Of a DNA stretch of 526 bases, positions 1-526 are shown piece after piece. The notes below the pieces were generated by a model. That model saw only the letters and a program-made list of their open reading frames with translations, was not told the DNA's origin and ran no database searches. How positions within the stretch are numbered: the first letter of the stretch is position 1; the number at the start of each line of letters is the position of its first letter. The stretch is from NCBI RefSeq assembly GCF_003334255.1, contig NZ_QOWU01000225.1. One strand, written 5' to 3'. A program made the position numbers and the translations under genes. Source of the stretch: Escherichia coli. Its GTDB lineage: Bacteria; Pseudomonadota; Gammaproteobacteria; Enterobacterales; Enterobacteriaceae.

Positions 1-2
1 CC

Positions 3-37
3 GTAGGCCGGATAAGGCGTTCACGCCGCATCCGGCA
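3..37 (-). repeat. REP palindromic unit, Y-type (canonical orientation on minus strand), loop variant TC (plus-strand reading)
   Basis: Reverse complement of 3-37 is tgccggatgcggcgtgaacgccttatccggcctac, matching the E. coli Y-type REP consensus. Stem GCCGGAT (7-13) pairs with ATCCGGC (30-36); inner stem GGCGT (16-20) pairs with ACGCC (23-27). GTAG at 3-6. Confidence 0.85.
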
Positions 38-49
38 GTCGTGCGCAGA

Positions 50-86
50 TGCCTGATGCGACGCTAACGCGTCTTATCAGGCCTAC
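50..86 (+). repeat. REP palindromic unit, Z-type (probably Z2), plus orientation
   Basis: tgcctgatgcgacgctaacgcgtcttatcaggcctac. Stem GCCTGAT (51-57) pairs with ATCAGGC (76-82); inner stem GACGC (60-64) pairs with GCGTC (69-73); loop taac; 3' tail CTAC at 83-86. The T at stem position 4 (GCCTGAT vs GCCGGAT) is as I recall for Z-type units. Confidence 0.8.
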
Positions 87-103
87 AAATTCCCGCGCCA
101 TCC

Positions 104-138
104 GTAGGCCGGATAAGGCGTTTACGCCGCATCCGGCA
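104..138 (-). repeat. REP palindromic unit, Y-type, loop variant TT (unit B)
   Basis: Same as 3-37 except t at 123 in the hairpin loop (ggcgtTTacgcc), so the stem is preserved. gccggataaggcgtttacgccgcatccggc is a common E. coli REP variant. Confidence 0.85.
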
Positions 139-150
139 GTCGTGCGCAGA

Positions 151-187
151 TGCCTGATGCGACGCTAACGCGTCTTATCAGGCCTAC
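151..187 (+). repeat. REP palindromic unit, Z-type, plus orientation
   Basis: Identical to 50-86. Confidence 0.8.
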
Positions 188-204
188 AAATTCTCGCGCC
201 ACCC

Positions 205-239
205 GTAGGCCGGATAAGGCGTTCACGCCGCATCCGGCA
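205..239 (-). repeat. REP palindromic unit, Y-type, loop variant TC (unit A)
   Basis: Identical to 3-37. Confidence 0.85.
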
Positions 240-251
240 GTCGTGCGCAGA

Positions 252-288
252 TGCCTGATGCGACGCTAACGCGTCTTATCAGGCCTAC
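252..288 (+). repeat. REP palindromic unit, Z-type, plus orientation
   Basis: Identical to 50-86. Confidence 0.8.
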
Positions 289-305
289 AAATTCCCGCGC
301 CATCC

Positions 306-340
306 GTAGGCCGGATAAGGCGTTTACGCCGCATCCGGCA
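306..340 (-). repeat. REP palindromic unit, Y-type, loop variant TT (unit B)
   Basis: Identical to 104-138. Confidence 0.85.
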
Positions 341-352
341 GTCGTGCGCAGA

Positions 353-389
353 TGCCTGATGCGACGCTAACGCGTCTTATCAGGCCTAC
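353..389 (+). repeat. REP palindromic unit, Z-type, plus orientation
   Basis: Identical to 50-86. Confidence 0.8.
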
Positions 390-406
390 AAATTCTCGCG
401 CCACCC

Positions 407-441
407 GTAGGCCGGATAAGGCGTTCACGCCGCATCCGGCA
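407..441 (-). repeat. REP palindromic unit, Y-type, loop variant TC (unit A)
   Basis: Identical to 3-37. Confidence 0.85.
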
Positions 442-453
442 GTCGTGCGCAGA

Positions 454-490
454 TGCCTGATGCGACGCTAACGCGTCTTATCAGGCCTAC
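454..490 (+). repeat. REP palindromic unit, Z-type, plus orientation
   Basis: Identical to 50-86. Confidence 0.8.
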
Positions 491-507
491 AAATTCCCGC
501 GCCATCC

Positions 508-526
508 GTAGGCCGGATAAGGCGTT
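508..526 (-). repeat. REP palindromic unit, Y-type, partial (truncated by window end)
   Basis: gtaggccggataaggcgtt matches the first 19 nt (plus-strand reading) of the Y-type units at 3-37 and 104-138; the window ends before the loop. Confidence 0.7.

Follow-up and report, generated by a model that had tools for sequence, protein, structure and literature searches.

The definition of repetitive extragenic palindromic (REP) sequences, the GTAG rule, the Y consensus and the layout of the BIME-2 class of bacterial interspersed mosaic elements (BIMEs) were laid out by Ton-Hoang et al. 2012 (PMC3333891), in a REP orientation convention that is the reverse of Bachellier's. In the nomenclature of Gilson and Bachellier (reviewed in PMC3333891), BIME-2 elements are built of GTAG-footed Y and Z2 REPs in alternation, with a short inner linker and an outer motif; their tandem copies are near-identical within a locus, and how many copies a given locus has varies between strains. 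Two described arrays of this kind bear on the DNA studied here. One lies between mhpE and mhpT in K-12 and F'128, near lac, and has been named a hotspot for lac-amplification junctions, the REP array being found in 20% of sequenced rearrangement junctions (Lin et al. 2011, PMC3161906, Fig. S1). The other is REP325 of the yjdM-yjdN locus, a BIME-2 array of which naRNA4 (RF02564; Qian et al. 2015, PMC4550694) is one unit. Here, we analyzed a stretch of 526 bp from Escherichia coli (contig NZ_QOWU01000225.1, assembly GCF_003334255.1), hereafter the window, in which positions are counted along the whole length on the + strand. We found that the window is the interior of a BIME-2 array, made of tandem E. 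coli REP (palindromic unit) doublets, and that two types of a 101-bp unit, A and B, alternate strictly along it. The element, the locus to which it very probably belongs, its copy-number variability and its recombinogenic nature were already documented, and only the strictly alternating allele is new.

Tandem Repeats Finder reported a single array spanning positions 1-526, with a period of 101, 5.2 copies, 97% matches and a score of 1010, and a repeat finder recovered 223-nt copies at 101-nt spacing whose identity alternated between 100% and 97%. By direct count, mismatches were absent at lags of 202 (0/324) and 404 (0/122), compared with 12/425 at a lag of 101 and 6/223 at a lag of 303. Direct comparison on the + strand showed that units 1 (1-101), 3 (203-303) and 5 (405-505), all of type A, are identical to one another, as are units 2 (102-202) and 4 (304-404), both of type B. 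Unit 6 is represented by its first 21 nt (506-526), which end before position 22, so that it cannot be typed as A or B. The two types differ only at unit positions 22 (C/T), 93 (C/T) and 101 (T/C), so that unit 1 reads C22/C93/T101 and unit 2 reads T123/T194/C202. The A|B|A 143-nt pattern occurs twice in the window and in none of 200 shuffles, which places the periodicity far beyond chance. An initial annotation of the same DNA had listed these unit identities and the three A/B sites, and all of its coordinates and bases proved correct on direct count.

In each unit, a 14-nt linker joins a Y REP to an inverted Z2 REP, after which comes a 17-nt linker. The first Y REP lies at 3-36 on the + strand, with GTAG at 3-6, a stem of 7-13 paired with 30-36, an AA/GC mismatch, an inner stem (16-19/24-27) and a tetraloop at 20-23, and it recurs once per unit at 104-137, 205-238, 306-339 and 407-440 and, truncated, at 508-526. 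The inner linker AGTCGTGCGCAGAT, which separates Y from Z2 in the S-type position, occupies 37-50 and returns at 138-151, 239-252, 340-353 and 441-454. It is followed by the inverted Z2 REP (iREP) on the - strand at 51-86, with a stem of 51-57 paired with 76-82 and a CTAC at 83-86 that reads GTAG on the minus strand; further copies, one per unit, stand at 152-187, 253-288, 354-389 and 455-490. The outer linker, AAATTC(C/T)CGCGCCA(T/C)CC, covers 87-103 and is repeated at 188-204, 289-305, 390-406 and 491-507. Variable site 22 falls in the tetraloop of the Y hairpin (TTCA in A, TTTA in B), and sites 93 and 101 fall in the outer linker, between the CTAC of Z2 and the GTAG of the next Y. A CT dinucleotide within this linker (92-93) is present in the B form only. 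In addition, every Z2 carries TGCC|TGAT and GGCC|TAC, motifs that are cleaved by TnpAREP in vitro (PMC3333891).

These features are those of REPs and of BIME-2, a class to which the initial annotation had not referred the repeat in this observation. The repeated hairpins are GTAG-footed imperfect palindromes with a stem mismatch, Y on the + and Z2 on the - strand; they occur in high copy per genome and are extragenic, the matching locus being intergenic; and the Y and Z2 REPs stand in inverted alternation, with a short inner linker and an outer motif, in multiple tandem copies. Nothing essential sets the window apart from described BIME-2 elements, except that its zero-divergence A/B alternation over five units is absent from the 5,426 complete E. 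coli genomes that formed our comparison set.

Single strands were predicted to fold in either of two ways, into a separate hairpin for each REP or into a single long Y:Z2 "REPIN" hairpin over 3-86. On both strands, the minimum-free-energy fold is the single hairpin over 3-86, with a DNA fold energy of about -27 to -30 kcal/mol (z -3.8 to -5.2), and the RNA fold of three units reached -186 kcal/mol (z = -11). Site 22 is unpaired in both predicted folds and sites 93 and 101 lie in unpaired linker, so the predicted structure is untouched by any of the three A/B differences, which look like structurally neutral markers rather than functional differences.

The unit had matches in all 5,426 comparison genomes, at a median of at least 23-38 places per genome, and the best identity to the whole window among these genomes was 98.7%. 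All nine inspected array matches to the whole window lay between mhpE and mhpT (9/9: DLI.5a, LR-46, an MG1655 isolate, XL10-Gold, ETEC L6, D8, 51243816-SK1A, PapRG-06-5 and TB06051). The match in H10407/SEC470 is a short array of 143 bp in the same spacer, and one further inspected match is a neighbouring REP cluster between yaiL and fghA. At this locus, ~48 nt separate the mhpE stop codon from the array and ~93 nt separate the array from the mhpT start codon, and the + strand of the window runs antisense to the mhp genes. Metagenome contigs gave two matches to the A|B|A 143-mer, both of them shorter arrays carrying the mhpT-side flank. A 44-mer in which 14 and 13 nt of REP flank the A-type outer linker was present in 1,656 of the 5,426 genomes, at 1-4 places each. 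The unit with its linker is thus confined to one place and not dispersed, which indicates that the array grew in situ, with the caveat that a near-identical linker is present in the yjdM-yjdN array of Escherichia sp. E1V33 and that K-12 REP325 has a linker of the same family. We therefore assign the window to the mhpE-mhpT spacer as very probable on sequence similarity. Among plasmids, those of the F' type carry the 444-bp K-12 allele, with no exact match to the window, and phage records held single-REP fragments only.

The array of the window shares with the K-12/F'128 array at this locus (PMC3161906) the 101-bp unit, the inner linker and the outer linker family, and exact A units are found in XL1-Blue and XL10-Gold. 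It differs in that MG1655 has 444 bp with CTC units, whereas the window needs at least ~747 bp and at least five pure alternating units. If the usual edge units, X and T, are present, the array implied by the window would be at least ~747 bp long, equal to the longest allele seen.

In order to survey insert sizes at this locus, 1 kb of each flank was joined as one query, and 59 genomes were sampled evenly down the ranking. Inserts of 40-52 bp, which correspond to a single REP, were found in 32 of the 59 genomes; the remainder had inserts of 141 bp (8 genomes), 242-244 bp (3), 343 bp (2), 444-446 bp (12), 747 bp (1) and, in one genome with IS621, 1,420 bp. Outside this sample, the best matches to the window included alleles of 545 and 646-648 bp. 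The length classes step by 101 bp, from ~42 bp for a single REP up to 747 bp. Copy-number polymorphism had been anticipated in the initial annotation, and the mhpE-mhpT inserts do vary between strains in whole units. It had, however, expected length to change in 202-bp steps, and here only the polymorphism itself held: the steps are 101 bp and 303-bp registers occur too, so that 202 bp does not stand alone. The recombinogenic character that it expected of such a locus agrees with the REP cluster found in the rearrangement junctions of Lin et al. 2011 (PMC3161906).

The order of units also varied between strains. O157:H7 has a single Y REP, XL1-Blue has X-A-T-Y (343 bp), XL10-Gold has X-A-A-A-T-Y (545 bp), and MG1655 has X-B'-B'-T-Y (444 bp), in which B' is a C/T/C recombinant. 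Mixtures of A and B types are present in VOFL01, a metagenome genome (X-B-A-T-Y), ETEC L6 (X'-B*-B-A-T-Y), LR-46 (X'-B-A'-B*-A-T-Y) and DLI.5a (X-B-A-A'-B-A-T-Y). At sites 22/93/101, the haplotypes TCT, TTT and CTT occur in further strains, and CTC also as a recombinant. Unit 1 of the window is identical to interior mhpE-mhpT units of DLI.5a, LR-46, XL10-Gold and VOFL01, and unit 2 to B units of DLI.5a, LR-46, ETEC L6 and VOFL01. Because exact A units, exact B units and B-A dimers are present in independent assemblies, they are real sequences, which contradicts the possibility that the A/B differences are sequencing errors. Registers other than 202 bp were found as well, namely 101 bp (A-A-A and B'-B') and 303 bp (DLI.5a).

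We consider it likely that the (AB)n series of the window arose from a BIME-2 interior at mhpE-mhpT in which a B-A dimer was duplicated in a 202-bp register by slippage or unequal exchange. On the most economical view, a pre-existing B-A dimer would have taken the array from X-B-A-T to X-(B-A)n-T through two or more duplications in this register, with replication slippage or unequal sister-chromatid exchange as the likely process. A 202-bp register would be perfectly homologous, and a 101-bp register would carry three mismatches (3%). Across the strains compared, the same edge units persist, X next to mhpT and T next to mhpE, and it is the interior that turns over; constant edges with interior turnover are the classic signature of in-register misalignment. 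Moreover, the (BA)2 block of LR-46, in which two of the units have each acquired a single private mutation, indicates that duplication of the dimer has happened in nature. The suggestion in the initial annotation that an AB dimer was amplified by slippage or unequal crossing-over is therefore supported, as A, B and B-A pre-exist at the locus and LR-46 holds an older B-A'-B*-A.

Literature on direct repeats shorter than ~200 bp describes rearrangement as possible without RecA, via slippage or sister-strand misalignment, and as raised in a mismatch-repair defect. Lovett and Feschenko (PNAS 1996) reportedly found that mismatch repair stabilises diverged 101-bp tandem repeats; given an A/B pair, such repair would favour the 202-bp register. 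The mutation rate is ~2e-10 per bp per generation, at which the expected wait for one substitution in 526 bp computes to ~9 million generations. If repeat turnover is far more frequent than point mutation, no divergence accumulates, and with turnover orders of magnitude above substitution, zero divergence is the expected state and no absolutely recent event is needed. From the lack of divergence, it had earlier been concluded that amplification was very recent or that homogenisation was ongoing; amplification or homogenisation stands, but the recency does not follow, as turnover need only be much faster than point mutation.

Several observations weigh against an origin by dimer duplication at this locus. 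The exact B-A-B junction (B|A|B 143-mer) was found in none of the 5,426 complete E. coli genomes, where the closest sequence reached 99.3% identity; species-representative genome contigs and viral contigs gave no match to the A|B|A 143-mer, and pure alternation was seen in no independent assembly among the sets searched. The 101- and 303-bp registers across strains argue against any general preference for 202 bp. The assignment to mhpE-mhpT is itself one of similarity, and the data do not separate slippage, exchange that depends on RecA, and amplification catalysed by a REP-associated tyrosine transposase (RAYT).

The pure (AB)n series is either a private allele or an assembly cycle that was over-traversed. 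An artefact of the latter kind, the alternative that the initial annotation had raised, would mean that the true array is shorter, for example X-B-A-T, and that a 202-bp cycle was walked too many times or the copy number mis-estimated. X and A are identical over unit positions 45-101, and, judging from the sequences, no k-mer of up to 79 nt in X-B-A-T would contradict an A-to-B junction, so that a closed 202-bp de Bruijn cycle would form; traversal of this cycle would yield exactly zero divergence. The lack of any other assembly with B-A-B among the complete genomes fits such an error, as does a metagenome contig (OBBH01004672.1, 1,741 bp) that breaks off within the array, 77 nt into the A unit that follows X-B. 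However, short-read assemblers usually collapse such repeats and do not expand them, and independent complete genomes, LR-46 and DLI.5a included, hold arrays of similar length at mhpE-mhpT (646-747 bp). The diverged B-A'-B*-A of LR-46 cannot be a cycle artefact, so the arrangement of the window is biologically plausible, and we regard an assembly error as unlikely.

Amplification by TnpAREP/RAYT, in which a 202-nt two-unit single-stranded circle is excised, or rolling-circle copying lays down several B-A dimers per event, would account for zero divergence in one multi-copy step. TnpAREP cleaves and recombines BIMEs in vitro at CT, including TGCC|TGAT, GGCC|TAC and a linker C|T (PMC3333891), both of the former motifs are present in every unit of the window, and published rolling-circle models start from two tandem BIMEs. 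The CT of the outer linker (92-93) occurs only in B, so a cut in the linker could recur every 202 bp, but four other + strand CT sites per unit mean that cut sites impose no 202-bp register. Events of this type are not known in vivo, and of the eight K-12 REP regions that a mobilome sequencing study examined, none yielded reads across a circular junction. The A-A difference between XL1-Blue and XL10-Gold, the 101- and 303-bp registers and the recombinant haplotypes are, in turn, what homology-driven exchange predicts. RAYT amplification is accordingly quite improbable in our estimate, and its narrower version, in which the whole (AB)n series would be the footprint of a single RAYT event (a 202-nt circle, copied by rolling circle and re-ligated, with its register set by the B-only linker CT), is very improbable; were it true, the models of amplification proposed in 2010 and 2012 would have in this allele their first trace in vivo. 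It is most improbable of all that selection keeps the 202-bp unit, whether because the hairpins or linkers of A and of B have different binding partners or because of a spacing suited to gyrase, HU or RNA processing. BIME-2 arrays do bind gyrase and act as supercoiling barriers, and REP325 RNA binds HU in vitro, but the A/B sites are unpaired and leave the predicted hairpins unchanged, the haplotypes at sites 22/93/101 occur in many combinations across strains, more than half of the sampled genomes (32/59) have a single REP at mhpE-mhpT, and the nucleoid role of naRNA4 was not reproduced. Duplication of a B-A dimer by misalignment, an instance of ordinary repeat instability, is thus the reading that we retain.

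Known BIME-2 arrays suggest what the array might do at this site. By analogy with them, the mhpE 3' untranslated region would contain a series of stable hairpins that stabilise the mRNA and partly terminate transcription before mhpT, and, as DNA, the array would be a gyrase target and a supercoiling barrier. A recent study showed that mRNA upstream of REP325 is stabilised by it and that read-through is attenuated ~8- to 10-fold, with Rho accounting for part of this attenuation. The targets of gyrase include BIME-2 elements, which are also candidate topological or supercoiling barriers, and gyrase binding and cleavage of BIME-2 in vivo is reported for the family (Espeli and Boccard 1997). Rfam naRNA4 (RF02564) matches the + strand of the window at 6-83, with further matches at 107-184, 208-285, 309-386 and 410-487; these five score 85-87 bits and five on the - strand score 62-63, against a gathering score of 59.5. 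Such roles at mhpE-mhpT are called into question by their being carried over from other arrays, and by the fact that the mhp operon would transcribe the strand opposite to that transcribed at REP325, which is the lower-scoring naRNA4 strand. The role of HU and naRNA4 in nucleoid condensation was not reproduced in 2026. Because most sampled strains (32/59) have a single Y REP there, the copy number of the array is clearly dispensable.

Among related systems, REP325 has the same Y-linker-Z2 build and an outer linker of the same family, AAATTCCCGCACCCTCC, and differs in its period (100 rather than 101), its inner linker, its locus and its transcription in the Y-to-Z2 sense. In the K-12 yjdM-yjdN array (REP325, 2743-3399), the second and fourth full units are identical and others between them differ, which amounts to a partial two-unit register. 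E1V33 was the only species representative that matched a degenerate pattern of the outer linker; it has a two-unit array at yjdM-yjdN (650-900), and its linker, AAATTCTCGCGCCATCC, is closer to the mhp-type linker than to that of K-12 REP325. The window also resembles REPINs and the REPs of RAYT systems (Bertels and Rainey 2011, PMC3116915; Nunvar 2010, PMC2817692), in that an inverted REP pair can be folded into one hairpin (3-86) and that the Y and Z2 of E. coli are the REPs that flank rayT. REPINs are, however, usually dispersed singlets, whereas the window is a tandem array grown in place with a locus-restricted linker.

By analogy only, the array recalls eukaryotic satellites. In satellite higher-order repeats, a multi-unit block is homogenised more than its monomers, and edge units are more diverged than interior ones. 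The window has five units where satellites extend over megabases, comes from a different organism with different biology, and has no centromere function.

Other element classes and genetic signals did not account for the window. The integration host factor (IHF) consensus WATCAANNNNTTR had no match in it even at one mismatch, and BIME-1/RIB is ruled out, there being no IHF site in the window. An array of promoters or intrinsic terminators was rejected too, with no sigma-70-like promoter and no intrinsic terminator found in the window. The only open reading frames (ORFs) of at least 30 aa are 34-39 aa long and recur along the array (49-168, 150-269, 251-370 and 352-471 on the + strand; 122-226 and 324-428 on the - strand); a coding repeat was dismissed because 101, the period, does not divide by 3 and no ORF exceeds 39 aa. 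Some RefSeq genomes annotate a 'hypothetical protein' over the mhpE-mhpT array, which is almost certainly spurious. A CRISPR array does not fit, since there are no unique spacers and each inter-hairpin segment is itself repeated in just two near-identical variants. RRS elements belong to a different sequence class, and weak Rfam matches to MIR5274, P17, mir-770 and mir-370 fell far below their gathering scores, as generic hairpins.

The alternating allele has little significance beyond annotation. The mhpE-mhpT spacer could be of use in strain typing, being compact and highly polymorphic in length (~42 to at least 747 bp), and errors of assembly are likely there. Contig OBBH01004672.1 illustrates how short-read assemblies break at this array. 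An array marked with A and B units would also be a convenient natural substrate for studying register preference, that is, the shares of slippage, recombination, mismatch repair and RAYT in BIME amplification.

Four further observations concern the locus and its surroundings. XL1-Blue and XL10-Gold, related laboratory strains, differ by exactly two A units. Both strains are presumably recA1, and their difference reflects either an assembly error or a 202-bp change that took place without RecA on a laboratory time scale. In 51243816-SK1A, parts of two Y REPs are missing from the opening 241 nt of the array; the deletions apparently ran between short direct repeats (…CCCGC / …GCCGC) and left Z2-only units, through either real slippage deletion or consensus error. 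The REP cluster between yaiL and fghA (2501-2609 in isolate SC418) lies one gene past mhpT and, together with the mhpE-mhpT array, brackets mhpT-yaiL; REPs at both places were noted by Lin et al. 2011 (PMC3161906). Finally, in the CUVET16-321 spacer (~1000-2460), IS621, of the IS110 family, is inserted inside the Z2 of the first unit (GGCCT^ACAAATT), with CT on both sides. The insertion spot is the GGCC|TAC site of TnpAREP cleavage in vitro, a result that is consistent with REPs as targets of insertion sequences.

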